From: Solirubrobacteraceae bacterium
Lineage (GTDB): Bacteria > Actinomycetota > Thermoleophilia > Solirubrobacterales > Solirubrobacteraceae
Length of the DNA: 64,000 nucleotides
Direction of reading: 5' to 3'
Assembly (NCBI GenBank): GCA_030690545.1
Contig: JAUYGN010000079.1
Span: 39,386-103,385, forward strand
Below, piece after piece: positions 7,387-53,484 of this stretch. The translations under genes and the position numbers were made by a program. Below the pieces are notes generated by a model. That model made no database searches, was not told where the DNA came from, and was given only the letters and a program-made list of their open reading frames with translations. How positions within the stretch are numbered: position 1 is the first letter of the stretch; each line of letters starts with the position of its first letter.

Positions 7387-8250
7387 TCACCGAGGCCGCC
7401 CGCCGAGCGGCGGCAACAGCGCCTGCGCATCGTCGCCGCGTCCGAACGAGCCCTGCGCTCCCGCGAGCACGAAGACGAGCGCGGCGCGGCCGGCCGGCTC
7501 GTCGAGGTTGTCGACCGTCGACAGGTCGCGGTCGCGGAACCAGCCGATGTGCGACGGGTCGCTGTCGCGCCGCTCGGCGCCGACGACCTTCACGCCGGTC
7601 TGCGCGAGACCGCGCGCGATGCCGTCCTGCAGCGCGTCGAGCCGCTCGGCCGCCGCCTCCTCCTCGGGCTCCTCGGAGGGACGCAGCACGATCACGCCGT
7701 CGAGGTTGCCGAAGCCGCCGCTGAAGGACTGCAGCAGCGCGTTGCGCAACTGGCCGACGAGCCGCCCGCCGTCGACCATCTGGACGCCGATCCGACGACC
7801 GAGGTCGTCCAGCAGCGAGGGATCGCGCTGCAGCGCCACGTAGCGCGTCCCGCGGGAGCGCTCCGCGAGCGCCTCGAGATCGATCTCCTCGCGGACGACG
7901 GCGACGAGCGACAGGTTGGCGCCCGTCGGCTCGAGCGCCTCGCGGATGATGTCCGGCGCGTCGTCGTCGTCGCCGAGCAGGACGAGGCCGATCCGCAGGC
8001 CGCGCAGCTCGCCGCCCGTGAGGATCGGATAGGCGGCGTCGGCGAACCGCTCCAGCTCGCGGACGCGCGACCGTGCCTCGTCACGCTCGCGGTCGGCGTT
8101 GCGGACGTCGGCGCGCAGCGAGTCGCGCAGGTCCTCGCGCGCGGAGGACACGAGCTCCCGGTCGCCGATCGCGACCCCGAGCAGCAGCCCGACGACGAGC
8201 GCGATGAAGACGGCTGCCAAGGACAGCGCGTGGTAGCGAAAGTCGAACAT
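7387..8250 (-). CDS. SteB / MctB-family (DUF3186-like) membrane-anchored protein
   Basis: N-terminus [29 protein letters not shown] followed by a coiled coil, as in the mycobacterial MctB and corynebacterial SteB family. Its position between steA and pyrG matches known actinobacterial synteny. Confidence 0.75.
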
Positions 8251-8258
8251 TCAGAAGA

Positions 8259-9401
8259 TCACTGCAGCCCGAGCACGACCTCGACCTTGAGCCACATCAG
8301 GTCGGCGAGGTCGCGCAGGGCGGGCGTCAGCACGACGATAGCCAGCAGGCACAGCAGCCCGGCGAGCGCGACCACGACGAGTGGCCGGCGGCCGGGCAGC
8401 GGACGGTACAGCCGGCTGACGCCCTTGGCATCGACGAGGATCTCGCCGAGCCGCAGGCGCGTGAGGAACGTCGAGGCCATCCCGCGACGGTTCTTGTCGA
8501 GGAACTCGACGAGGTTGAACTGCGAGCCGACCGAGACGATCAGCTCGGCGCCCTTCTCGGCGGCGATGATCATCGCGACGTCCTGGCTCGTCCCGGGCGC
8601 CGGGACGAGCTTGAAGGGCAGGCCGAGCGACTCGAGGTGCTCGCGTCCGGGGGCGCGGCCGTCGGGGTAGGCGTGGACGATCAGCTCGGCGCCGCAGCGC
8701 AGCGCGGCCTCGCTCGCGGAGTCCATGTCGCCGACGATCATGTCGGGCTTGAAGCCCTCCTCCAGCAGCGCGTTGGCGCCGCCGTCGACGGCGATGATCC
8801 GCGGGCGGACGTCGCGGATGTACGGCCGCAGCATGCGCAGGTCCTTCTGATGATCGACGCCGCGCACGACGATCAGCGCCGGGCGATCGCGAAAGTCGGT
8901 GTCGAAGCGCGGCAGCTCGATGCGTCCCGACAGCAGCTCGCGCTCCTCGAGCATGTGCTCGATCGTGTTGCGCGCGAAGGCCTCCAGCGCATCGCCGATC
9001 TCGTGACGGCGCTCGTCGGTGGCGGCGCGGACGGCGGCGGGCTCGCGCACCTCGCCGGTCACCAGCACCTTCTCGCCGCGCGCGACCGATCCGCCGCGGA
9101 CCGTGATCTCGTCGCCGTCCTTGCATTTCTTGAAGAGCGTGTCGTCGGGCAGGTCGACGAGATGGATCCCGGCCTGCACGAGCAGCAGCGGACCCATGTT
9201 CGGATAGGCGCCCGTCGACGACGGGCTGCAGTTCAGCACCGCCTGCACGCCCGCCGCGATGAGATCCTCCGCGGAGACGCGATCGAGGTCGCGGTGATCG
9301 AGGATCGCGATGTCGCCAGAGGCAAGCGTCTTGACGATGAGCTTCGTGCGCCGCCCCAGGCGAGCGCGTCCGGACAGCTCGCGGGCGACGGCGACGGCCA
9401 T
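8259..9401 (-). CDS. steA: Cytokinetic-ring-associated protein SteA (thiamine pyrophosphokinase-like domain plus C-terminal TM)
   Basis: IAILDHRDLDRVSAEDLIAAGVQAVLNCSPSSTGAYPNMGPLLL... with a C-terminal TM helix. Synteny with steB and pyrG. Confidence 0.8.
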   Translation of the reverse strand: MAVAVARELSGRARLGRRTKLIVKTLASGDIAILDHRDLDRVSAEDLIAAGVQAVLNCSPSSTGAYPNMGPLLLVQAGIHLVDLPDDTLFKKCKDGDEITVRGGSVARGEKVLVTGEVREPAAVRAATDERRHEIGDALEAFARNTIEHMLEERELLSGRIELPRFDTDFRDRPALIVVRGVDHQKDLRMLRPYIRDVRPRIIAVDGGANALLEEGFKPDMIVGDMDSASEAALRCGAELIVHAYPDGRAPGREHLESLGLPFKLVPAPGTSQDVAMIIAAEKGAELIVSVGSQFNLVEFLDKNRRGMASTFLTRLRLGEILVDAKGVSRLYRPLPGRRPLVVVALAGLLCLLAIVVLTPALRDLADLMWLKVEVVLGLQ

Positions 9402-9414
9402 CGGCTGAGTCTAG

Positions 9415-10491
9415 ATGGCGTTGTTAACGGGATGCGAAGATCGGCGTGCAGCGATTGCTAGCGTGTCGCGGGCTGTGCTGATACCGCTCTCAGCGGCGAC
9501 TTCGGACCGTCTGCGAGACGTCTGTGGCGAGGAGCCCGGGTTCTTCTGTCGCGAGGTGCTCGACCGCACCGGCGACCGCTCGCTCGCCGAGCTGTCGGAC
9601 AACCTGCTCGGCATGACGCTGACGGTCGTCGTGATCTTCGTCGTCGCCCTGATCATCAACCGGCTCGTCGGCCGGGGGATCAACCGCACCCTGCACACCC
9701 TGCACTCCGGCGCCGTCCGCGAGCGTCTCGGCTCGATCCGCCGCCGCACGCCCGCCGCCCTGCTGGAGACGACCGAGACGAGCCTGCGCGCCGAGCAGCG
9801 CATCACGGCGCTGACGAGCGTGCTGCGCAGCGTCTCGACCGTCGTGATCTTCACGATCGCGGGCTTTCTCATCCTCGGCGAGTTCGGGCTCAACCTCGCG
9901 CCGCTGCTCGCCGGCGCGGGCATCGTCGGCCTGGCGCTCGGCTTCGGCGCCCAGTCGCTCGTCAAGGACTTCCTCTCCGGCCTGTTCATCCTCGTCGAGG
10001 ATCAGTTCGGCGTCGGCGACATCGTCGACCTCGACCAGCAGACGTCGGGCACGGTCGAGGCCGTCTCGCTGCGCACGACGCGCCTGCGCTCCGTCGACGG
10101 CACGGTCTGGCACGTGCCCAACGGCGACATCCGCCGCGTCGGCAACAAGAGTCAGCACTGGTCGCGCGCGCTGCTGGACATCGAGGTCTCCTACGACACG
10201 GACATCGACCAGGCCAAGTCGACGATCAAGCGCGTCGCCGACGGACTGTGGCAGGAGCGCCACGACATCATCGAGGAGCCGCAGGTCTGGGGCGTCGAGC
10301 AGCTCGGGCCCAACGCGATCGTGATCCGGCTCGTCGTGAAGACCCGGCCCTCGGACCAGTACGTCGTGAGCCGCGAGCTGCGCCAGCGACTGAAGGAGGC
10401 CTTCGACCTCGAGGGGATCGAGATCCCGTACGCGCAGCAGGTCGTCTGGCATCGCGACGAGCCCGCGCCGCAGCCGGCCGGCGACGAGTAG
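9415..10491 (+). CDS. Small-conductance mechanosensitive channel (MscS family)
   Basis: TM helices followed by DFLSGLFILVEDQFGVGDIVDL...GTVEAVSLRTTRLRSVDGTVWHVPNG, the MscS beta-domain signature. The start is uncertain. Confidence 0.85.
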   Translation: MALLTGCEDRRAAIASVSRAVLIPLSAATSDRLRDVCGEEPGFFCREVLDRTGDRSLAELSDNLLGMTLTVVVIFVVALIINRLVGRGINRTLHTLHSGAVRERLGSIRRRTPAALLETTETSLRAEQRITALTSVLRSVSTVVIFTIAGFLILGEFGLNLAPLLAGAGIVGLALGFGAQSLVKDFLSGLFILVEDQFGVGDIVDLDQQTSGTVEAVSLRTTRLRSVDGTVWHVPNGDIRRVGNKSQHWSRALLDIEVSYDTDIDQAKSTIKRVADGLWQERHDIIEEPQVWGVEQLGPNAIVIRLVVKTRPSDQYVVSRELRQRLKEAFDLEGIEIPYAQQVVWHRDEPAPQPAGDE

Positions 10492-29231: not shown

Positions 29232-29245
29232 TTAGGGTACCCTAA
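29232..29245. promoter_or_regulatory. Perfect 14-bp palindrome, candidate DtxR/IdeR-family operator upstream of the siderophore ABC operon
   Basis: TTAGGGTACCCTAA lies 33 bp upstream of the 29278 start. The half-site TTAGG resembles the known IdeR/DtxR iron box (TTAGGTTAGGCTAACCTAA). Confidence 0.5.
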
Positions 29246-32450: not shown

Positions 32451-33316
32451 CCGAGCCGTTGCTGCAGACCGCCGCCGTCACGCTCGCCTACGACGAGCGC
32501 GTCGTCGTCCACGAGCTCGACCTCGTCATCCCGCAGGGCATGGTGACCGCCGTCGTCGGAGCCAACGGCTGCGGCAAGTCGACCCTGCTGCGAGCGCTCG
32601 CGCGCCTGATGCGCCCGCGCGGCGGCAGCGTGCTGCTCGACGGCGCGTCGATCGCCACGCTCCCGAGCCGCGAGATCGCCAAGCGCCTCGGGATCCTCCC
32701 CCAGTCCCCGCTCGCGCCCGACGGGCTGGCCGTCGAGGATCTCGTCGGGCGCGGCCGCTACCCGCACCAGACGCTGTTTCGCCACTGGTCGGCCGAAGAC
32801 GAGGCCGCCGTCGAGTCGGCGCTCGCCGCGACGGGCACGAGCGAGCTGCGCGCCCGGCCGCTCGACGAGCTCTCCGGCGGCCAGCGCCAGCGCGCCTGGA
32901 TCGCGATGACGCTCGCCCAGGAGACCGAGATCCTGCTGCTCGACGAGCCGACGACCTTCCTCGACCTGACGCACCAGATCGAGGTGCTCGACCTGCTCGA
33001 CGATCTCGTCGACGCGCACGGGCGCACGGTCGTCATGGTGCTGCACGACCTCAACCAGGCGTGTCGCTACGCCGACCACATCGTCGCGATGCGCGACGGG
33101 CGCATCCACGCGGCCGGGGCCCCCGGCGACGTCGTCGACGCGGCGCTCGTGCAGGACGTCTTCGGCCTCCAGGCCCGCGTGATCGACGATCCCGTGACGG
33201 GAACGCCGCTGTGCCTGCCGACGGGCCGGCGAGCGGACGCCACGAACCGCCGGCGCGCGCGCAGCACCGGCCCGGATCCGAGGCCGTCAGGCGCCGAAGC
33301 GGACCGTCAGGCCTGA
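32447..33316 (+). CDS. Iron-siderophore ABC transporter ATP-binding protein
   Basis: Walker [12 protein letters not shown], signature LSGGQRQR, Walker [12 protein letters not shown], and H-loop VLHDLN. Confidence 0.9.
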
Positions 33317-34570
33317 CGGATAGGGACCGGCGAACCGCAGCTTGCCGGGATCCCCCTGGGCCCGCTGCAGGCGCGGGCCCTCCAGCAGCGCCGTCGCCAG
33401 CGCCGGCAGCTGGGCACGGACGATGTGCTCGCCATAGCACGTGTGCAGGCCGTGGCCGAAGAGCATGTAGTCGCTCCAGGGGCGGTCGACGCGAAACTCG
33501 CCGGGCGCCTCGATCGCGCGCTCGTCGTGCATCGCCGACAGCGTCGCCGCGAAGACCGTCGAGCCGGCCTTGACCGTCGTCTCCCGGTCGCTGCCGGCGG
33601 CGATCGTCGTGTCCTGCGGGACGTAGCGCAGCAGCGCGAAGTTCTGCGGCCGGAAGCGCGAGGCCTCGAAGGCGTAGCGGCCGACGAGCTCGCGATCTCC
33701 GGCGCGCGCGGCCTGCTGGGCACGCTCGAGCTCGTCGTCGCGCCCGAGCAGCTCCTCGACGACGCGCGCGAAGGCGTTGGAGATCGTCGGGATCCAGCCG
33801 GTGATGTTGCCGAGGATGTTGTGGCGGATCGCGATGTCGTGGAAGTTCGGCTCGTCCTCGGACTGCAGGCGCAGCAGCCGCGTCAGGACGTCGTCGGGGA
33901 CGTCCTCGCCGGCCTTCAGCTGCGCCTTGCGCACGGCGATCTGACGGTCGAGGTGCGGGCGCCATCGCGCCGCGTCGGCGAGCGCACGCTCGCGGACCGG
34001 CGCGAGGTTGCCGACGTTGATGAACAGCTCCTGGAAGACGTTGCGCGCCCAGCGCAGGTGCGTCGCCCTGTCGGGGCCCGGGGTGCCGAAGTACTCGCCG
34101 ATCGTGCGGTCGACCGCCGGATCGGCGAGCTGCGAGACGACGTCGATCTCTCCGTCGTCGTCGCGGCGCTCGGCGACGAGCGCGCGGGCGAGCTCGTACA
34201 TGCGATCGCCGATCATCGGCAGGTCCTCGCGCAGCACCGCGCGGTCCATCGCGGCGTGGTCGTGGCGATACAGCGGCGTGTCGTCGACGCCGAGGATGAA
34301 GGGCCCCGTGATCGCGACCATCTTCGGCCCGTACAGGTCGACGGTGAAGCGCGCCGGATCGCCCAGCACCTCCTTGACGTCCTCGTTGCGCGTCACGATC
34401 GTCGTCGACCCGGCGCTGACGATCGGCCGGTGGCGGCGCATGAGGGCGAACGTCTTGAGCGCCGACGAGTCGGCGACGCGACCGAAGACGTCGGCGAGCC
34501 CGACCTGCAGGCGGTCCTTGTCGCCGCTGAGACGGTCGAGCGCGGTGCGGATCGCGTCGTCGAGGCCCAT
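33287..34570 (-). CDS. Cytochrome P450
   Basis: Heme-thiolate loop [10 protein letters not shown] (FxxGxxxCxG) and the K-helix ExxR (EASR). Confidence 0.85.
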
Positions 34571-34579
34571 GCCGACCGG

Positions 34580-35992
34580 CTATCCGGTCGTGCCGTCGGC
34601 GAGCGCGGCGAGGGCCGTCATGCCGGGCACGAACAGATACTCGCCGCCGCGCGTCGTGACGAACGTCTCCTGCGGCGACAGCAGGAACGGCGGCTTGCCC
34701 TGGATCGTCATCTTGCCCTTGCCGAACGGGTCGCCGAGCAGGTAGTCCTTGTCGTTGCCGAGGCCGAAGATGTTGCCGGCGTTCAGCCACTGCACCTGGA
34801 CGCCCTCGAACTGGCGCGAGATGCTCGCCTGGAAGCTCACGAAGACGAGGCCGCGGTCGACCCCGTCGTCCTCCATGACGCCCTCCGGCAGGACCGCTCC
34901 ATACGGCATGCCGCGGCGGATCATGCGGTGGCGGAAGCTCAGGCTGCCGCCCCAGCCGAGCGCGTCGCGCGGGTTGGAGCGGCGGATGTGCGATCCGAGC
35001 GGGCAGCGCATCCCGTCGAGATCGTCGTCGTAGCGAAAGTCGTTGGCCTGCGACGAGGAGGGGTGGAACTCGTCGTCGGGCGCGTCGGGGTGCGTGACGA
35101 GCGGCGTGCCGTTGGCCCAGCGGCCGACGACCTTCGCCGACAGCAGGTCCTCGTCGCCGGCCGTGTAGAGCTTCGCGGCCGCGCGCATCGTGCGCCGCCA
35201 CAGCGCGACGTCCTGGTAGAGCTTGCGCCAGACCATGTACGTGCCGCTGCGACCGAGCGGGTCGGCGGGCATGTTCGGCAGCCGCCGCTGGGGATCGACG
35301 CGCGTGTCCTCGTCCGGGTAGCCGAGGATGAACTCACCGGGCGCGAACGCGCGCCAGCCGCCGTCCTGCAGCGGGATCCCGCCGCCGCGCACCTTGCGCT
35401 CGGTCGCGCCCTCGACCGCCGGCTGCGCGAAGCCGTCGGCGTAGCCGAAGTGCTCGCGCGCCCCGGGCAGCATCTCGGTGTCCTCCTGGTAGATGACGCG
35501 CACCCCGCCGGCGGCCTTCATCGCCGCCTTCATCTTGCCCAGCGCGCGCTTGTGGTCGACGGGCTGCTGCGCGTTGATCGTCAGCAGCACGTGGGTCTCG
35601 CCCGTTCCGAGGCCCCGCTCCCACTGCGACGGCGCGCTCGGGCCGACGTCGCCGAGCAGCACCGCTCGCGCGGCATCCGACATGCCCTCGCGAAACTCAC
35701 GCGAGAAGCTGCCGACCTTGTCGTCGGAGACGCCGAGCGCGCGCAGTCCAGGCGCCGTCAGCGCGACGTTCAGCGTCGTCAGCGGCTTCTCGCCGCGCGG
35801 CCACGGGTTGGCCGTCGTGACGTGGTCGACGACGCCGGAGAACCACGCCCGCGCCTGCTCAGGCGCGCAGTCGATGTGCACGAACGCGTACGACGTGCAG
35901 TCGTACGTGTTGCCGTAGGCGCGCAGGATGTCGCCCTGGATGTCGCCGAAGTCGATGTGCACCGGCGGGTGCTGCTTGGCCCCGGGCGCCAT
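34580..35992 (-). CDS. DyP-type (dye-decolorizing) haem peroxidase
   Basis: N-terminal DIQGDILR, the GxxDG motif (FGYADGFAQP), proximal-His region HIRRSNPRD, and LVFVSFQ. Start at 35992 (MAPGAKQ) overlaps the upstream stop by 1 nt. Confidence 0.85.
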   Translation of the reverse strand: MAPGAKQHPPVHIDFGDIQGDILRAYGNTYDCTSYAFVHIDCAPEQARAWFSGVVDHVTTANPWPRGEKPLTTLNVALTAPGLRALGVSDDKVGSFSREFREGMSDAARAVLLGDVGPSAPSQWERGLGTGETHVLLTINAQQPVDHKRALGKMKAAMKAAGGVRVIYQEDTEMLPGAREHFGYADGFAQPAVEGATERKVRGGGIPLQDGGWRAFAPGEFILGYPDEDTRVDPQRRLPNMPADPLGRSGTYMVWRKLYQDVALWRRTMRAAAKLYTAGDEDLLSAKVVGRWANGTPLVTHPDAPDDEFHPSSSQANDFRYDDDLDGMRCPLGSHIRRSNPRDALGWGGSLSFRHRMIRRGMPYGAVLPEGVMEDDGVDRGLVFVSFQASISRQFEGVQVQWLNAGNIFGLGNDKDYLLGDPFGKGKMTIQGKPPFLLSPQETFVTTRGGEYLFVPGMTALAALADGTTG

Positions 35993-36564
35993 CAGCCGCC
36001 GAACTCCCGCACGAACGCGGCCTGCAGCGCCGCCGGGTCGAGCCCCTGCGAGTCGGTGGCGAAGGCGATCATCTGCTCGCGCTGCGCCAAGGCGTCCTTG
36101 ACGACCGGCACCGTGGCGTCCCCGTAGGGCGTGAAGAACAGCCCGCAGTCGACCTGGTTGTGCTTGAGATAGGCCTTCAGCGCGGCCCCCTCGGCCTGCA
36201 CCGGACAGCCGACGCAGCGCCCCCAGACCTCCGCCGCCTCGGTCGCGAGCTTGCTGCACAGCTCGTCGAGGTAGCTGTCGAGATCACCGTCGAAGTTGCT
36301 CGTGAAGACGAGGTAGGGCAGCTCGAGGTGCTCGGCCCTGCGCTGGCCCCAGGCCCTGTCGTTGACGAAGTCGGTGATGATCACCCAGCGCGCGATGTGC
36401 GTGCGCTCGAGCTTGGCCAGCGGACTCGGGCGATCGTCGTCGTAGAGGCCCTCGAGGTAGGCGCGCAGCGCATCCTCCTCGCCGGGCCGGATCGGCGTCA
36501 TCGCCTGGAAGCCGTAGGCCTGCCCGACGACGTTGGGATCGCGGCGGCGGAGCATCACAGGCAC
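35992..36564 (-). CDS. Uncharacterised protein, HxARW / SNF(D/N)G family, paralogue B
   Basis: ...THIARWVII...YLVFTSNFDGDLDSYLDEL...VWG...KAYLKHN... About 25-30% identical, by eye, to the gene immediately upstream. Confidence 0.7.
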   Translation of the reverse strand: MPVMLRRRDPNVVGQAYGFQAMTPIRPGEEDALRAYLEGLYDDDRPSPLAKLERTHIARWVIITDFVNDRAWGQRRAEHLELPYLVFTSNFDGDLDSYLDELCSKLATEAAEVWGRCVGCPVQAEGAALKAYLKHNQVDCGLFFTPYGDATVPVVKDALAQREQMIAFATDSQGLDPAALQAAFVREFGG

Positions 36565-37253
36565 CCCTGGACGTCGGTCAGCAGGCGCTCGTAGGCGGCG
36601 GCGAACGCCTCGGGATCCATCTGCGCCGCGCGGCCGCGCAGCGGCGCGAGCCTGCCGTCGAGCTCCAGCGCGCGCAGGACCATCGTCGTCGTCGCCTCCG
36701 GGTAGGCGCAGTAGTAGTGGCTGGCCTCCGTCTCGTTGCGCTGGATGTAGGTCTTGAAGGGCGCGGTCGGCAGCGGCTTGGGGAAGCCGAACGAGCTGCC
36801 CCAGAACGCCGTCATCCCGTCGGTCAGGATGTGGGAGAAGGCGTCGATGTACTCCTCCCAGCCGCCGTTGAAGTTGCTCTCGAAGTACATGTGCGCGTAG
36901 CGGAAGCGGCGCTTGCGCTGGGGCGGCCCGTTGTAGGGCAGCCTGCGGATCAGCGACCAGCGCGCGAAGTGGATGAACGACAGCTCGCGCAACGTCTCGG
37001 TCAGCTTCGGCCGCGCCGCCGTGACGGCGAACAGGATCGGCAGGAAGAGCCTGCCCGGGATCGGCAGCACGACGTCGCCGACGACCGGCAGCTTGAGCTG
37101 CATCCGCAGCGGCCGGATCGTGCTGAAGACCGTGATCGCGATCACCTGACCGGCGTAGTTGCGGTCCGAGCTCGAACCGGTGGCCGTCGGCGGGATGGCT
37201 GGGGCTTGCGCGCTCACCGCGGGCAACGTACGCGGCGTTCCGGAGCGCGTCAA
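36555..37253 (-). CDS. Uncharacterised protein, HxARW / SNF(D/N)G family, paralogue A
   Basis: ...FIHFARWSLI...HMYFESNFNGGWEEYIDAF...FWG...KTYIQRN... Overlaps paralogue B by 10 nt. Confidence 0.7.
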   Translation of the reverse strand: MTRSGTPRTLPAVSAQAPAIPPTATGSSSDRNYAGQVIAITVFSTIRPLRMQLKLPVVGDVVLPIPGRLFLPILFAVTAARPKLTETLRELSFIHFARWSLIRRLPYNGPPQRKRRFRYAHMYFESNFNGGWEEYIDAFSHILTDGMTAFWGSSFGFPKPLPTAPFKTYIQRNETEASHYYCAYPEATTTMVLRALELDGRLAPLRGRAAQMDPEAFAAAYERLLTDVQGCL

Positions 37254-37289: not shown

Positions 37290-37973
37290 TCAGGCGTCCG
37301 GCTCGACGCGCATCGCGCGCGCCAGCGCGCCGCCGAGAACGTGCTCGCCGTCGCCGAACCGCACGGTCAGCGGACCCTCGAATGGCTGCCGGGCGCTGAT
37401 CTCGCAGCGATCGCCGATCGCGATCCCGCGCTCGGCCAGGTAGCGCAGCATCTCGGGATCCGAGTCCGAGACGCGCACGAAGCGCCCGCTCGCGCCGACC
37501 GGCAGGCTGTCGAGCGCCTCGGTGCTGCCCTCGTCGATGACGAGGTCCGAGTCGGGGATCGGATCGCCGTGCGGGTCGTGGGTCGGGTGGCCGAGCTTGG
37601 CCGCGATCCGCGCCTCGAGATCCTCGGAGAGCACGTGCTCGAGCGCCTCGGCCTCCTCGTGCACGCGGTCCCAGGGCACGTCGAGGTGCTCGGCGAGGTA
37701 GAGCTCCAGCAGCCGGTGGTGGCGCAGCATCTCCAGCGCCAGCCGCTCGCCGGCCGGCGTCAGGCGGACGCCGTGGTAGGGCTCGTGGATCGCCAGCCCC
37801 TGCTCGGCGAGCTTCTTGACCATCGCCGATGCCGACGCGGCCGTCACGCCGCAGCGCTCGGCGAGCGCGTTCGTGCTGACGGCCTCGCCGGCGGCGCGCT
37901 GCTGCAGCGAGTAGATCGACTTCGCGTAGTCCTCGATCGCGCTGCTGCGCGCGGCGGCTGACTCGACGGCCAT
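37290..37973 (-). CDS. DtxR/IdeR/MntR-family metal-dependent transcriptional regulator with a C-terminal FeoA/SH3-like domain
   Basis: IEDYAKSIYSL...STNALAERCGVTAASASAMVKKLAEQGL....YHGV.LT..GE..AL...RHHRLLE.YL...L...WD.VHEEAE.LEH. Start from counting 227 aa back from the stop. Confidence 0.9.
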   Translation of the reverse strand: MAVESAAARSSAIEDYAKSIYSLQQRAAGEAVSTNALAERCGVTAASASAMVKKLAEQGLAIHEPYHGVRLTPAGERLALEMLRHHRLLELYLAEHLDVPWDRVHEEAEALEHVLSEDLEARIAAKLGHPTHDPHGDPIPDSDLVIDEGSTEALDSLPVGASGRFVRVSDSDPEMLRYLAERGIAIGDRCEISARQPFEGPLTVRFGDGEHVLGGALARAMRVEPDA

Positions 37974-38884
37974 CAGCGCGCCACCGTACCGAGCGCCGCC
38001 TGGATCTCGCGCTGGCGGCGGCGCCGCTGGACGGCGCGCGCGAGCAGCCCGTGGCTCGGCGACGCGACGAGCGCGAGCGCGAAGCAGATCGCTGCGACGA
38101 GACCCATCGCGCCGGCGATCGACGCGTCCAGCGCCGTCGCGGCGGCGTGACCGCCGAGCGCGCTGACCCAGCCCACCGCGACCGTCACGACGACCATCGC
38201 CCAGAGGCGGTTCGTCAACAGGTAGGCGGCGGCGGCGGGCACGATGAGCATGGTGACGACGAGGATCGCCCCGACGGACTCGAACGCCGTCACCGCGGTG
38301 ATCGCGACGGCGATCAGCAGCAACCGCGACAGCAGCGCCGGCGGGATGCCGATCGTACGCGAGAACTCGGGGTCGAACGTCGTCGCCTTGTACTCCTTCC
38401 ACAGCAGCGTGACGAGCGCGAGGTTGCACAGCGCGACGGCGCCGAGCAGGACGATCGAGCGCGCGATCTCGAGCTCGCCGATCGCGAGCGTCCGAAACGG
38501 CGCGAACGCGATCTCGCCGTAGATCGTCGAGTCGAGGTCGAGGTGGACCCCGCTGGCGTAGCGCGTCACGCCGAGCACGCCGAGCGCGAACAGCGCCGGG
38601 AAGACGAGCGCGATCGCCGCGTCGCTCTTGACGAGCCCGGTCGAGCGCAGCGCCTCGATCGCCAGCACGCAGATGATCGCGAACAGCGCCGCGCCGGCGA
38701 TCACCGGCAGCGGCGCGCGCGTGCCGAGCAGCAGGTAGACGAGCACGATCCCCGGCAGCACGGCGTGCGAGACGGCGTCGCTCATCAGCGCGACGCGGCG
38801 CAGGACGAGAAACGGTCCGAGCAGGCCGGCGGCCGTCGCGACGAGCCCGGCGGTGAGGATGATCGTGAGGTCGTCGTCGAGCAT
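37973..38884 (-). CDS. Metal (Mn/Zn/Fe) ABC transporter permease, ABC-3 family
   Basis: LGPFLVLRRVALMSDAVSHAVLPGIV fits the TroD/MntD-type pattern, with multiple TM segments. Internal ATG at 38884. Confidence 0.85.
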   Translation of the reverse strand: MLDDDLTIILTAGLVATAAGLLGPFLVLRRVALMSDAVSHAVLPGIVLVYLLLGTRAPLPVIAGAALFAIICVLAIEALRSTGLVKSDAAIALVFPALFALGVLGVTRYASGVHLDLDSTIYGEIAFAPFRTLAIGELEIARSIVLLGAVALCNLALVTLLWKEYKATTFDPEFSRTIGIPPALLSRLLLIAVAITAVTAFESVGAILVVTMLIVPAAAAYLLTNRLWAMVVVTVAVGWVSALGGHAAATALDASIAGAMGLVAAICFALALVASPSHGLLARAVQRRRRQREIQAALGTVAR

Positions 38885-38889
38885 GCCGT

Positions 38890-40134
38890 TCAGCGCTCCG
38901 CCGCCCGTGCGAGCGCGTGCAGCCGGTCGGCGTACTCGTCGCCGAGGCTGGCGCGCAGGTCGGTCGGATCGGGCTCGCGCGCGTCGGGCACGCCGAGCCG
39001 GGAGCCGTGCTCGAGCCAGGCGGCCCACAGGTCGCGCCGCTCGAGCACCGCGTGGGCGGCGGCGGCGCCGGGCTGCGACAAGTACAGGCGCTCGCCGTCG
39101 CGCCGCAGCATCCCGGCGCGGTCGAGGTCGCGCAGCGCGCGGCGCAGCGCACGGGCGGGTCGGGCACTGGCGAGCGCAAGCTCGGCGGCGGTCAGCGGCG
39201 GTCCGGCGTGGATCGCCGTCTCGAGGTCGACGAGCACGCCCTCGGCGAGGATCCGGCGGCGATCGCGCGCCAGCCGGCGGGCGCGCCAGAGCACGCCACG
39301 GCGCGGCGCGATGAGCACGCAGACGATGACGACGCTCACCGCGACGAGCACGATCACCGGTCCCGTCGGGATCTCCGCGCGCGATGCCAGCAGCGCCCCG
39401 CTGACGCCGACGGCGGCGCCGATCACGGCGGCCAGCGGGATCACGAGCGCCAGGCGCCCGGCGAGCTGGCGCGCGGCGACGGCCGGCGCGACGAGCATCG
39501 CGACCATGAGGATCGCCCCGACCATCCGCAGCCCGATCACGATCGCGACGACGAGCAGCGCCGTCATCGCGATCTCGAGGAGCCGCACCGGCAGCCCGAC
39601 GGCCCCCGCGAAGGCCGGGTCGAAGAGCGTCGTCTTCAGCGCGCGGAAGCCGATCGCGACGAGCGTCAGGGCGACGATCGCCAGGCCCGCCATGACCGCG
39701 AGGTCGCGCTCGAGCAGCCCCGCCGCCTGCCCGAAGAGGTACTTCTCCAGCCCGGCCTGGTTGGAGTTGTCGGTGCTCGCGATGTACGTCAGCAGGACGA
39801 TCCCGAGCGAGAAGAAGCTCGACAGCACGACCCCGATCGCGGCGTCCGGCCGGATCCGCCCGGTGCGCTCGATGCCGACCATCAGCAGCGCGCCGACGAG
39901 GCCGGCGATCGCCGCACCGGCCAGCAGCGACGTCGCATCCTTCGCGCCGGTCGCGATGAAGGCGATGCAGACGCCCGGCAGCGCCGCGTGCGCGAGCGCG
40001 TCGCCGACGAGGCTGCGCTGGCGCAGCACGGCGAGCACGCCGACCGCCCCCGCGGTGATCCCGAGCAGCATCGCTCCGAGGACGACGACCGCGTCGCTGT
40101 AGTCCAGCGGGACGAGGTCGATCAGCCAGCCCAC
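38890..40134 (-). CDS. Metal ABC transporter permease (ABC-3 family) fused to a C-terminal DtxR-like winged-helix extension
   Basis: Residues 1-280 form a permease (LRQRSLVGDALAHAALPGV...). Residues about 281-414 are soluble: LTAAELA....P..LRRALRDLDRAGMLRRDGERLYLS..G...A..VLERRDLWAAWLEH. Confidence 0.85.
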   Translation of the reverse strand: MGWLIDLVPLDYSDAVVVLGAMLLGITAGAVGVLAVLRQRSLVGDALAHAALPGVCIAFIATGAKDATSLLAGAAIAGLVGALLMVGIERTGRIRPDAAIGVVLSSFFSLGIVLLTYIASTDNSNQAGLEKYLFGQAAGLLERDLAVMAGLAIVALTLVAIGFRALKTTLFDPAFAGAVGLPVRLLEIAMTALLVVAIVIGLRMVGAILMVAMLVAPAVAARQLAGRLALVIPLAAVIGAAVGVSGALLASRAEIPTGPVIVLVAVSVVIVCVLIAPRRGVLWRARRLARDRRRILAEGVLVDLETAIHAGPPLTAAELALASARPARALRRALRDLDRAGMLRRDGERLYLSQPGAAAAHAVLERRDLWAAWLEHGSRLGVPDAREPDPTDLRASLGDEYADRLHALARAAER

Positions 40135-40883
40135 GACGCCTGCGCCTGGTCGACGGGCTCGGCGGCGGCGCCGTACGCGCGCCGGACGTTGGCCGGCGTC
40201 AGCGTCTCGCCGACCGGGCCGGCGGCGACGACCCGCACGTTGAGCAGCAGCGCCCAGTCGAACGCCGAGCGGACCGTCGTGAGGTCGTGGTGCACGACGA
40301 CCATCGAGCTGCCCTCGTCGCGCAGCTCGTGCAGCAGCTTCAGGATGCTCGCCTCGGTGCGCGCGTCGACGCCCGCGAAGGGCTCGTCGAGCAGCATGAC
40401 CGGCGCCTGCTGCGCCAGCGCCCGGGCGATGAAGACCCGCTGGCGCTGGCCGCCCGACAGCTCGCCGATCTGGCGCGCCGCGTAGCCCGTCATCCCGACG
40501 CGCTCCAGGCAGGCGTCGACGAGCGCCGCCTGCGAGCGACCGACGCGACGCAGCCAGCCCGTCGCCGCGTAGCGCCCCATCTCGACGACCTCGCGCACCG
40601 TGATCGGGAAGTCCCAGTCGATCGCGTCGCGCTGGGGAACGTAGGCGACGCGATCACGCGCGCTGCGCACCGGGCGGCCCTCGATCAGCGTCTGCCCGCC
40701 GTCGGATGCGACGAGGCCCAGCGCGGCCTTCAGCAGCGTCGACTTGCCGGCGCCGTTGGGTCCGACGATCGCCGACAGGGCGCTGGCCGGAAAGCGCGCG
40801 TCGACGTCCCACAGCACCGGGTGGGCGCCGTAGGAGACCGTCAGGCGACGGACCTCGAGCGCGGGCGTCGGCGTGGCGGTCAT
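40122..40883 (-). CDS. Metal ABC transporter ATP-binding protein
   Basis: Walker A GPNGAGKSTLL, signature LSGGQRQR, Walker B MLLDEPFAGVD, and HDL. Confidence 0.9.
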   Translation of the reverse strand: MTATPTPALEVRRLTVSYGAHPVLWDVDARFPASALSAIVGPNGAGKSTLLKAALGLVASDGGQTLIEGRPVRSARDRVAYVPQRDAIDWDFPITVREVVEMGRYAATGWLRRVGRSQAALVDACLERVGMTGYAARQIGELSGGQRQRVFIARALAQQAPVMLLDEPFAGVDARTEASILKLLHELRDEGSSMVVVHHDLTTVRSAFDWALLLNVRVVAAGPVGETLTPANVRRAYGAAAEPVDQAQASWAG

Positions 40884-41812
40884 CGCAGGCCCTTCGCGAT
40901 CGTCTCGGCGTTGGCGCGCAGCATCCCGACGTACGTCCCTTCGGGCGTCCCGGCATCGCCGGCCGCGTCGCTGAACAGCGATCCGCCGATGCGCACGTCG
41001 GCGCCGCGGCGGCGGGCGGCGGCGAGCACCGCGTCGATCGTCTGGCGCGGCACGCTGGACTCGATGAACGCCGCCTTCACGCGACGCGAGGCGATCACCT
41101 CGGCGACGCGGCGGACCGATGCCGTCGTCGCCTCGGTGACCGTCGAGATGCCCTGGATCGCCACGACGTCGACGTCGTAGCGCCGGCCGAAGTAGCCGAA
41201 CGCGTCATGCGACGTGACGAGCACACGGCGAGCGCGCGGGATCGTCGAGATCTGCGCGCGAACGTCGGTGTCGAGCGCGGAGAGCCGCTCGAGGTAGCGC
41301 GCGAGGTTGGCGTCGTAGACCGCGGCGTGAGTGGGGTCCTTCTCCTTCAGGGCGGCCGTCGCCGTGCGCGCGGCGATCCGCCACAGCCCGACGTCGAACC
41401 AGACGTGCGGGTCATGGTCGAAGGCGGTCCCCTGCGGCGGCGCCAGCAGCCGCTCGCGCGGGATGTCCCTGGTGATCGCAACGGTCGTCTGACGCTCGGC
41501 GAGCTCGTCGAGCAGGTCGGCCATCTTGCCCTCGAGGTTCAGGCCCCCGTAGACGATCAGGTCGGCGTCGCGCAGCTCGCCGACGTCACCGGCGCTGGCC
41601 TTGTAGAGGTGCGGGTCGACGCCCGCGCCCATCAGGCCCGTGACCTCGACGCGATCGCCGCCGAGCTCGCGCATCGTGTCGGTGATGAAGTTCGTCGTCG
41701 TCGTCACGCGCAGCTTGCGCTCGGCGAGATCGCCGGCGTCGTCCTGCGAGGAGCAGCCGGCCAGGCCGACGATCGCTGCAGCGAGCACAAGACGATAAAT
41801 CGTGCGAGGCAT
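40880..41812 (-). CDS. Metal ABC transporter substrate-binding lipoprotein (cluster A-I, TroA/MntA/ZnuA-like)
   Basis: Lipobox LAGCSS. Metal-ligand regions GAGVDPHLY and DPHVWFD, plus SHDAFGYF. Confidence 0.85.
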   Translation of the reverse strand: MPRTIYRLVLAAAIVGLAGCSSQDDAGDLAERKLRVTTTTNFITDTMRELGGDRVEVTGLMGAGVDPHLYKASAGDVGELRDADLIVYGGLNLEGKMADLLDELAERQTTVAITRDIPRERLLAPPQGTAFDHDPHVWFDVGLWRIAARTATAALKEKDPTHAAVYDANLARYLERLSALDTDVRAQISTIPRARRVLVTSHDAFGYFGRRYDVDVVAIQGISTVTEATTASVRRVAEVIASRRVKAAFIESSVPRQTIDAVLAAARRRGADVRIGGSLFSDAAGDAGTPEGTYVGMLRANAETIAKGLR

Positions 41813-41821
41813 ATCCGTAGT

Positions 41822-41835
41822 TTAGCCACAACTAA
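41822..41835. promoter_or_regulatory. Candidate DtxR-family operator upstream of the metal ABC operon
   Basis: TTAGCCACAACTAA (TTAG-N6-CTAA) lies 10 bp upstream of the 41812 start codon. Only the outer 4 bp of each half are symmetric. Confidence 0.3.
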
Positions 41836-53468: not shown

Positions 53469-53484
53469 GTTAGGCGACCCTAAC
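53469..53484. promoter_or_regulatory. 16-bp palindrome immediately upstream of the 53498 gene
   Basis: GTTAGG-CGAC-CCTAAC lies 14 bp upstream of the ATG. It has the same TTAGG/CCTAA half-sites as the 29232 palindrome. Confidence 0.3.

Follow-up and report, generated by a model that had tools for sequence, protein, structure and literature searches.

The DNA analysed here is a window of 64,000 nt (G+C content ~72%) from contig JAUYGN010000079.1 of a Solirubrobacteraceae bacterium. It carries four tightly packed open reading frames (ORFs) on the minus strand, between positions 33287 and 37253. The ORF list and a direct reading of the sequence place gene A (220 aa, GTG start) at 36555..37217 and gene B (187 aa, ATG start at 36555) at 35992..36555. 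They are followed by a gene for a DyP-type haem peroxidase (470 aa, recognised by family models and motifs) at 34580..35992 and one for a cytochrome P450 (427 aa, recognised by PF00067 and motifs) at 33287..34570. What is new here is a probable oxidative system that couples a haem peroxidase with a P450 and has at its centre a new protein family, that of A and B.

All four ORFs are present where the initial annotation of this DNA had put them, but two of their starts had to be moved. Gene A had been started at TTG 37253, giving a protein of 232 aa. These three bases are the first three of a -35 hexamer, TTGACG (37248..37253, minus strand, read directly from the sequence), which is followed after a 17-nt spacer by a -10 hexamer of the TANNNT type, TACGTT (37225..37230, minus strand), 7 nt before the GTG at 37217. 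In nine orthologous loci (L001, L002, L006, L009, L011, L013, L015, L018 and L031) TTGACG or TTGACT is kept at the same distance from the GTG, and TACGTT or TAGCTT is kept 6-8 nt 5′ of GTGAGCG. The NCBI call for gene A is likewise 220 aa (P0121, locus tag Q8O56_09840, 'hypothetical protein'), so the conserved promoter and the database call both put the start at GTG 37217. A generic sigma-70 scan, the -10 rule of which was stricter, had passed over this promoter. The operon seems to be served by a promoter of its own, just upstream of gene A; as the -10 hexamer lies only 7 nt before the GTG, the gene A mRNA is probably leaderless.

Gene B, previously given as 190 aa, most likely starts at ATG 36555, and the resulting 187 aa agree with the NCBI call (P0001, locus tag Q8O56_09835, 'hypothetical protein') and with the N-termini of homologues. 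The A/B and B/DyP junctions both read TGATG, with overlaps of 1 nt, and the P450 gene begins 9 nt past the DyP stop codon. The spacings first reported for B/DyP and DyP/P450 were thus correct, whereas the overlap of A and B is 1 nt and not 10 nt. These junctions indicate translational coupling of the genes.

To characterise the products of genes A and B, we compared them with each other and with their homologues. BLASTP aligned 138 aa of A and B at 26% identity (E = 1e-16), and both proteins have the blocks HxARW, SNF(N/D)G, Y(I/L)D, WG and K-x-Y in the same order. In an alignment of 50 homologues, 15 columns were invariant across the A and B families, including H56, R59, N90, G93, D100, W114-G115, K130 and Y132 (numbered on the 190-aa form of B). 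The alignments therefore identify A and B as ancient paralogues, in agreement with the paralogy originally claimed. The motifs of gene A are IHFARW at residue 82, SNFNG at 114, EYIDAF at 122 and FWG at 138, and its N-terminal helix, VVLPIPGRLFLPILFAVTA, is hydrophobic. Those of gene B are THIARW at residue 52, SNFDG at 86, SYLDEL at 94 and WGRCVGCP at 111. Across 32 diverse fused homologues, the THxAR(W/F) motif of the B half had an invariant His and an invariant Arg, and the Cys after the WG motif of this half was near-invariant; the equivalent His of the A half was sometimes lost. Gene A also contains, within residues ~35-75 (window positions 36960-37110), an insertion of ~9-17 residues (about PLRMQLKLPVVGDVVLP) relative to most homologues (203 aa). 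Directly after the insertion comes the hydrophobic helix LFLPILFAVTA, the score of which resembles that of a membrane segment, and two to four true transmembrane (TM) helices are found at the equivalent position in Proteobacteria.

Neither A nor B gave a match in Pfam, NCBIfam, PADLOC or the PDB sequences. The 32 fused homologues gave no Pfam match at E <= 1, and the profile built from them found nothing in the PDB. As the initial annotation had supposed, the pair belongs to no characterised family covered by these sequence and profile searches. In a collection clustered at 90% identity, A has 2,357 relatives, all 'hypothetical' or unnamed and none with a Pfam domain, and B has 482; at 50% identity, 1,212 clusters match B. 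At least 562 species genomes have a confirmed locus among the 600 pattern matches listed. Neither Pfam nor NCBIfam has an entry for this sizeable unnamed family, which numbers at least 1,200 clusters at 50% identity. The PADLOC models of anti-phage defence matched none of A, B, the DyP, the P450 or three fused homologues, and a full-text literature search found no description of the A/B family, the module, a comparable DyP partner or the named accessions.

The fold of the two proteins was modelled with AlphaFold (AF2). The model of B (predicted local distance difference test score, pLDDT, 85) has a ferredoxin-like beta-alpha-beta core with extra C-terminal helices. A natural single-chain A-B fusion, P0137, which is 65-70% identical to the window A and B, was modelled with the help of fused homologues and gave two beta-alpha-beta-beta-alpha halves (pLDDT 86.5; predicted template modelling score, pTM, 0.85). 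Foldseek matched this model best to tandem ferredoxin-like proteins, with E values from 2e-6 to 5e-4: WhiE-ORFI (9lmn, 2e-6), sulfur oxygenase reductase (~1e-5), the Abx(+)O decarboxylase (9ltx) and an anthrone-oxidase-like protein (5f9p). Chlorite dismutase and DyP reached only E ~0.1. When the model of B was searched alone, its top matches were single-domain ABM/Dabb proteins and were non-significant (E >= 0.025); significance needed the fused model. The A-B fusion is thus predicted to be a pseudo-dimeric ferredoxin-like alpha+beta barrel, to which A and B would each contribute one half-barrel. Where the two are separate proteins, as in the window, they would associate into a pseudo-symmetric heterodimer that is built like the single-chain fusions. 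A heterodimer of the paralogues had been proposed at the outset, and it is supported by the pTM of the fused model and by the A-B fusion clusters described below.

The predicted barrel resembles several known proteins in outline and differs from each of them in detail. WhiE-ORFI, Abx(+)O, 5f9p and sulfur oxygenase reductase (2cb2) all have two ferredoxin-like halves per barrel, as predicted for A/B. Paired ferredoxin-like half-barrels are also what A and B share with the ABM/Dabb/SchA-CurD group, at the level of the fold only; neither protein matched PF03992, PF07876, PF04486 or any other Pfam model. The motifs of A and B (HxARW, SNF[DN]G, Y[IL]D and WG) differ from those of ABM/SchA-like proteins, and the long extra C-terminal helices set them further apart. 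The Fe site of sulfur oxygenase reductase (H-x3-H...E) is absent from A/B, which has one conserved His per half, that of HxARW, and no H-x3-H.

The ABM-type fold is also that of the IsdG-family haem oxygenases, and A/B could accordingly be an IsdG-like barrel that binds, degrades or chaperones haem, loading or unloading the DyP, the P450 and the minicatalase found in other lineages; alternatively, it could serve with the DyP as a deferrochelatase of the EfeB/YfeX type under metal limitation. The invariant His and Arg of B fit such a role, and every fused or adjacent partner of A/B is a haem protein. Against this, the His of the A half is not universally kept, no IsdG entry was among the Foldseek matches listed, and the Pfam, PDB sequence and profile searches found no sequence match between A/B and IsdG-type haem oxygenases. 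The IsdG catalytic triad runs in the order N...W...H; the conserved residues of A/B are an H in beta2, an N at the end of beta3, a D and a W, in a different order.

The assignment of the 470-aa ORF to the DyP family was upheld by family models. It scored 105.4 bits with TIGR01413 (cut-off 100.5) and passed the gathering scores of both Pfam domains, DyP_N and Dyp_perox_C (PF21105, 34.1 against 27.5; PF20628, 26.9 against 20). The GxxDG motif, here GYADG, is at residue 183, SHIRRSNPRD with the presumed proximal His at 335 and the Arg-rich RHRMIRRG at 354; these catalytic residues were assigned by motif and by full-length alignment with DrDyP, not by structure. The closest solved structure is DrDyP (8re2/8re3, E ~1e-73), followed by 7anv, 5c2i, 2d3q and 4g2c, and 8RE2 is a class C/V enzyme (PMC10820274). 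The N-terminus, MAPGAKQHPPVHIDFGDIQGD, has no twin-arginine (Tat) motif. These features assign the window DyP to class V (C-type) and predict that it is cytoplasmic; it belongs, with its GxxDG intact, among DyPs such as DrDyP (8RE2), DyP2 (4g2c) and AnaPX (5c2i). In the literature searched, enzymes of this class are treated as standing alone, and the physiological roles and natural substrates of DyPs have repeatedly been called unclear (for example PMC10820274). The module DyP, in contrast, is always encoded with an A/B pair. An hhalign comparison of A-B with the DyP profile returned a probability of 0.2%, which rules out at the sequence level that A and B are degenerate DyP halves.

DyPs with dedicated partners encoded alongside are found in the EfeUOB (EfeB) and encapsulin-packaged systems, but the partners in the present module are a new family. 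The DyP scored 31.5 bits with the EfeB equivalog TIGR01412, for which the cut-off is 428, and no EfeU, EfeO or encapsulin gene was found in the neighbourhood in the window or in the compared loci. The low score and the lack of a Tat signal count against a deferrochelatase.

The biochemistry of class C DyPs raises another possibility, namely defence against peroxide stress. DrDyP alone is six-coordinate low-spin and inactive at neutral pH (PMC10820274). The module might detoxify H2O2 or organic peroxides, with A/B as a reductant-delivering, peroxide-sensing or redox-active partner that makes a sluggish class C DyP competent at physiological pH. The near-invariant Cys after the WG motif of B is consistent with this, as are the two unrelated folds found among the haem peroxidases that partner A/B.

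The Pfam DyP models missed clear members of the module DyP branch, in L087 (8318-9835), L090 (5416-6840) and L097 (6345-7847). These proteins have no Pfam match or are called 'hypothetical', and they scored E values of 1e-82 to 1e-141 with a hidden Markov model (HMM) built from module DyPs. Class V/C DyPs of the module type are therefore probably under-counted in surveys based on annotation.

The 427-aa ORF, also correctly named at the outset, passed the P450 model PF00067 with 29 bits (cut-off 22.8). Its Cys-ligand loop (FxxGxHxCxG, residues 371-380) and ExxR motif (EASR at 302) are intact. In the I-helix, TGWIPT (GWIPT at 258) stands in place of the usual AGx(D/E)T, and the acid residue is absent. 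HMMER aligned this stretch with AGYEPA of SgvP, putting Ile at the acid position and, probably, Pro at the Thr position, so that the canonical acid-alcohol pair of (A/G)Gx(D/E)T(T/S) is not found. The altered motif, G(W/F/M)IPT, is kept in 29/29 P450 orthologues examined, and the corresponding I-helix stretch in alphaproteobacterial fusion proteins is GFVPT or GFGPT. The best PDB match of the P450 reached only E 1e-20 (SgvP, 4mm0). By contrast, its identity with the Skermanella module P450 is 41% (E 6.5e-71), and with the corresponding domains of the giant fusions described below it is 30-31%. These comparisons point to a module-specific subfamily of P450s that was inherited with the module. 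No ferredoxin or reductase gene is linked to the P450. We infer from the I-helix that the P450 would not activate O2 in the standard way. A dedicated, fused P450 subfamily is hard to explain through peroxide detoxification alone.

To determine how widely the arrangement is conserved, we examined 80 genomic loci fetched with the core alignment, together with L001. They came mostly from Solirubrobacterales/Thermoleophilia and also from Svornostia abyssi, two Frankia species and a Nocardioidaceae metagenome-assembled genome. Genes A, B and DyP were colinear on one strand in all 77 loci with enough downstream sequence; a strict script flagged five of the 77, solely because of gene overlaps or frameshifted high-scoring segment pairs. 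The P450 gene followed that for DyP in 40 of 74 loci. Gene order was retained in L001 at 66% identity.

When PLSDB was searched with tblastn, the module turned up in two more phyla. In the acidobacteriote Granulicella tundricola, plasmid pACIX901 carries an unfused A-B-DyP operon (ACIX9_RS19085-95), the products of which are 36%, 34% and 40% identical to the window proteins. Skermanella mucosa pSM-3 encodes a half-barrel - four TM helices - half-barrel protein, a DyP and a P450, and Rhizobium rosettiformans p1 (D4A92_RS23635-45) a DyP, a half-barrel, a minicatalase and an alpha/beta hydrolase. In Rhizobium leguminosarum Vaf10 a single protein of 976 aa has the architecture half-barrel - TM - half-barrel - DyP. 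The largest proteins have a P450 in front of this arrangement (P450 - half-barrel - TM - half-barrel - DyP): SARO_RS19865 of Novosphingobium aromaticivorans DSM 12444 pNL2 (1,443 aa; L094 3601-7932) and PYR65_RS25005 of Pararhizobium qamdonense p2 (1,423 aa; L095 3853-8124). The module is thus present in at least three bacterial phyla. Conservation of the arrangement had been named as a check on the original proposal, and it holds within the locus set and again in Acidobacteriota and Alphaproteobacteria. The two giant proteins are annotated merely as 'Dyp-type peroxidase domain-containing protein' and 'cytochrome P450'. The gene for SARO_RS19865 comes after one for a regulator of the Streptomyces antibiotic regulatory protein (SARP) family, in a genetically tractable strain.

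Domain architectures were tallied among the best 150 representative clusters. B stood alone in 100 of these and was fused to A in 35; the remainder comprised A-B-X (six clusters), A-B-DyP (three), B-X (two) and B-DyP (two). The profile of domain X matched PDB 3e4w (MAP_2744c) with E 3.5e-9 and true catalases with ~5e-4, which identifies it as a minicatalase. In one lineage an 885-aa DyP-P450 fusion follows an A-B fusion with a 4-nt overlap. Every pair among the four window proteins is therefore fused in some genome, and this is strong comparative evidence that the four act jointly. The partnership of the paralogues with haem enzymes that had been put forward initially is borne out by the natural fusions A-B, B-DyP, A-B-DyP, DyP-P450 and P450-half-TM-half-DyP.

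At 72% GC many spurious long ORFs arise on both strands, and a chance adjacency of genes or misannotated ORFs forming no functional unit was therefore considered. The thousands of homologues, the confident AF2 models, the unbroken colinearity and the multi-domain fusions in three phyla leave this explanation with a negligible probability. Conservation and fusion together refute it.

The genes on either side of the operon are concerned with metal transport. Upstream, on the same strand, is a tro/mnt-type metal ATP-binding cassette (ABC) transporter operon (37290-41812, minus strand). It comprises genes for a substrate-binding protein (40880-41812), an ATPase (40122-40883), two permeases (~37973-40134) and a DtxR/MntR-family regulator with a FeoA-like C-terminus (37290-37973). 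Only 72 nt separate the stop codon of the regulator gene from the start of gene A, with no predicted terminator in the interval, and read-through from mntR into the DyP operon may occur. Downstream and convergent is an Fe-siderophore ABC transporter (29278 to ~33300).

Perfect TTAG-N6-CTAA palindromes occur three times in the window, compared with 0.45 expected by chance. One box, TTAGGGTACCCTAA (29232-29245), is just upstream of the Fe-siderophore substrate-binding gene (start 29278). A second, within AGTTAGTTGTGGCTAAACT (41822-41835), is just upstream of troA (start 41812), and the third (53470-53483) lies between an FHA-domain gene and a plus-strand gene. The boxes at 29232 and 41822 are probably DtxR/IdeR/MntR operators. 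A scan of the window found no such box upstream of gene A. Direct control of the operon by DtxR/MntR is not supported, as boxes precede both metal operons and none is found at gene A.

These neighbours bear on the proposal that the module handles haem or iron. The window operon lies between a tro-type Mn/Fe transporter with its DtxR-family regulator and an Fe-siderophore transporter, a DtxR homologue is encoded within 2.6 kb upstream in 22/71 loci, and genes for Fur and a TonB-dependent receptor are near the Granulicella operon. On the other hand, the DtxR-type box that marks both flanking metal operons is missing from the gene A promoter, and the linkage to metal genes is limited to the closest clade, with other neighbours in distant lineages. 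Even among close relatives, which keep the regulator, the transporter varies by locus (ZIP, NRAMP or tro). A stoichiometric chaperone would also not be expected as a permanent fusion to its client in many lineages. Processing of haem or iron, which the initial annotation had offered as one alternative, is thus less supported, and we consider it unlikely.

In several distant lineages the module is flanked by SARP/BTAD-AAA_16 or Pkinase-NACHT regulators. Large regulators of the STAND type adjoin fused A-B/DyP modules in L082/L083 (10567-14289), L086 (484-4560 and 8679-12221), L088 (3-3560) and the contig of P0400. They have either a Pkinase-NACHT/AAA_16(-TPR) or a SARP-like Trans_reg_C-BTAD-AAA_16-TPR architecture, and the regulator genes of L082 and L086 overlap the stop codon of the DyP gene. 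The recurrence of STAND regulators suggests that the module is under ligand-sensing control.

Regulators of these kinds would also suit the tailoring of a specialised metabolite. In this case an aromatic polyketide, quinone or peptide would be the substrate of A/B, itself an oxygenase, cyclase or decarboxylase of the ABM/SchA-like type, and the DyP and P450 would carry out radical coupling or oxidation. The nearest folds to A/B (WhiE-ORFI, the Abx(+)O decarboxylase, the anthrone-oxidase-like protein and the TcmI cyclase) and the nearest solved P450s, which are the natural-product enzymes SgvP (4mm0), CftA (8jnp) and CalO2 (3buj), point in the same direction. Clustering of the ORFs that lie within ~7 kb of the module in the fetched loci, however, brought out no recurrent gene for a polyketide synthase, a non-ribosomal peptide synthetase or the precursor of a ribosomally synthesised and post-translationally modified peptide. 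The compact window operon leaves no room for a precursor gene, and the varied neighbourhoods across at least 562 species genomes are unlike those of a specific biosynthetic cluster. A tailoring role thus seems improbable.

Manganese is linked to the management of oxidative stress, and the position of the window operon next to Mn-homeostasis genes, like the presence of katG and Fur genes near the Granulicella operon, would agree with a defence against peroxides. No thioredoxin or peroxiredoxin-type partner is linked to the module, and STAND and SARP regulators are atypical of stress regulons. Together with the existence of the P450 subfamily, these observations give peroxide defence a low probability.

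We favour, at somewhat less than an even chance, a reading in which A/B, the DyP and, where present, the P450 form one oxidative system, with A/B as the small-molecule partner of peroxide-using haem enzymes in hydroperoxide chemistry. The four genes would constitute a self-contained, probably leaderless operon with A, B and DyP as its invariant core. The A/B barrel would be a dedicated small-molecule-handling subunit that binds or oxygenates a substrate, probably a hydrophobic one, and it would be physically coupled to its haem enzyme, the cytoplasmic class V DyP in the window and a minicatalase in other lineages. An organic hydroperoxide, probably derived from a lipid or fatty acid, would be formed and then converted, in an oxylipin-like or lipid-hydroperoxide pathway. 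The P450 would transform the peroxide-type intermediate rather than act as a reductase-dependent monooxygenase. Within this reading, the heterodimeric A/B barrel, its part as dedicated partner of a DyP or a minicatalase and the P450 subfamily as a frequent third activity are well supported, whereas the substrate and the hydroperoxide intermediate are more conjectural. The original suggestion of an undescribed oxidative pathway, with a heterodimeric partner for the haem enzymes, is supported to the extent that A/B belongs to no known family, the arrangement is conserved and the proteins are naturally fused.

Five lines of evidence suggest a lipid or hydroperoxide as the substrate of this system. 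The first is the chemistry of the fold class, which includes cofactor-independent oxygenases, cyclases and decarboxylases of the ABM/SchA-like type as well as sulfur oxygenase reductase. The second is the preference of the minicatalase: its homologue MAP_2744c is reported by Pakhomova and colleagues (2009) to prefer organic hydroperoxides. The third is the atypical P450. The fourth is the membrane anchoring in Proteobacteria, where TM helices are inserted between the two half-barrels. The fifth is the neighbourhood, as patatin genes adjoin or lie near the module in three contigs, and alpha/beta hydrolases, a CMAS-type methyltransferase and acyl-CoA dehydrogenase/MaoC genes are also near it in distant lineages; L090, described below, brings patatin together with a minicatalase, two A-B units, two DyPs and a P450.

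Several observations weigh against the lipid-hydroperoxide pathway. No patatin or lipase gene lies within 7 kb in 80 Solirubrobacterales-type loci, nor is a minicatalase or CMAS gene found near Solirubrobacterales loci. Alpha/beta hydrolases are too common as neighbours to weigh much, and the three patatin contexts may be phylogenetically non-independent. The structural similarity of P0137 to its Foldseek matches is at the level of the fold only (TM score 0.3-0.4, root-mean-square deviation 7-10 Å), so no catalytic mechanism can be transferred. The invariant His and Arg and the near-invariant Cys of B fit haem or metal binding equally well. The nearest solved relatives of the P450, SgvP, CftA and CalO2, are tailoring and not hydroperoxide-converting enzymes, and the absence of the P450 from about half of the loci makes it an accessory component. 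Finally, the Pfam domains of the window proteins and the giant fusions were limited to DyP and P450, with no lipoxygenase or animal-haem-peroxidase domain. Comparison with oxylipin synthases is therefore one of functional analogy and not of membership.

The analogy is closest with the fungal Ppo enzymes or linoleate diol synthases (PpoA, 7,8-LDS), in which a dioxygenase domain of the haem-peroxidase type is fused to a P450 domain that isomerises hydroperoxides. Both they and the module pair a His-ligated peroxidase-type haem with a Cys-ligated P450. A further common point is a P450 without the canonical acid residue in its I-helix. As in Ppo, the two haem domains of the module share one polypeptide in other genomes (the 885-aa DyP-P450 and the ~1,430-aa P450-...-DyP proteins), with no reductase alongside. 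The Ppo enzymes differ in having the animal-haem-peroxidase/cyclooxygenase fold where the module has a DyP, itself an alpha+beta barrel, and they lack the obligatory extra A/B barrel; no sequence relationship between the module and Ppo was found. A second parallel is the coral and cyanobacterial catalase-related allene oxide synthase, which is fused to a lipoxygenase; catalase-related haem proteins act on organic hydroperoxides. The A-B unit is similarly fused or adjacent to a catalase-like domain, the minicatalase, in some lineages. A/B is not a lipoxygenase, however, its formation of a hydroperoxide is only proposed, and in the window a DyP takes the place of the minicatalase.

In its most far-reaching form, the proposal is that A/B is an unrecognised family and the obligate substrate-handling core of a cross-phylum haem machine that makes or converts lipid-type hydroperoxides. 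The haem enzyme joined to A/B would be either a class V DyP or a minicatalase, a dedicated P450 would be added in some cases, and the whole would sometimes be a single membrane-anchored protein of ~1,430 aa. This we regard as possible but doubtful. If true, the module would be a bacterial counterpart of the eukaryotic oxylipin synthases, built from entirely different folds, and class C DyPs would gain a long-sought physiological context. A peroxide or lipid substrate would likewise imply a new bacterial route of oxylipin or lipid-hydroperoxide chemistry. DyPs are intensively studied as biocatalysts, and here an entire branch of cytoplasmic class V DyPs has, in every case, a two-part undescribed partner encoded next to it, to which it is repeatedly fused. 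The role of these DyPs thereby becomes testable in cultured hosts, which include Novosphingobium aromaticivorans DSM 12444, Granulicella tundricola, Rhizobium species, Svornostia abyssi and Frankia.

Two of the compared loci have unusual contents. In L090 (1-10805) a region of 11 kb encodes a patatin, a 397-aa minicatalase, a fused A-B protein (433 aa), an alpha/beta hydrolase and a second DyP (474 aa), followed by unfused A, B, DyP and P450. Three of the L090 genes have no Pfam annotation and were recognised solely by the HMMs built in this analysis. L085 carries an A-B-minicatalase fusion gene (8001-9986; P0412, 661 aa) in a phage-like region with tail-fibre Collar/Gp10_C and Amidase_2 domains and numerous small ORFs that lack annotation. 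When the viral contigs of IMG/VR were scanned for the core patterns of the family, no relatives were returned, and the L085 gene may be an isolated item of prophage cargo.

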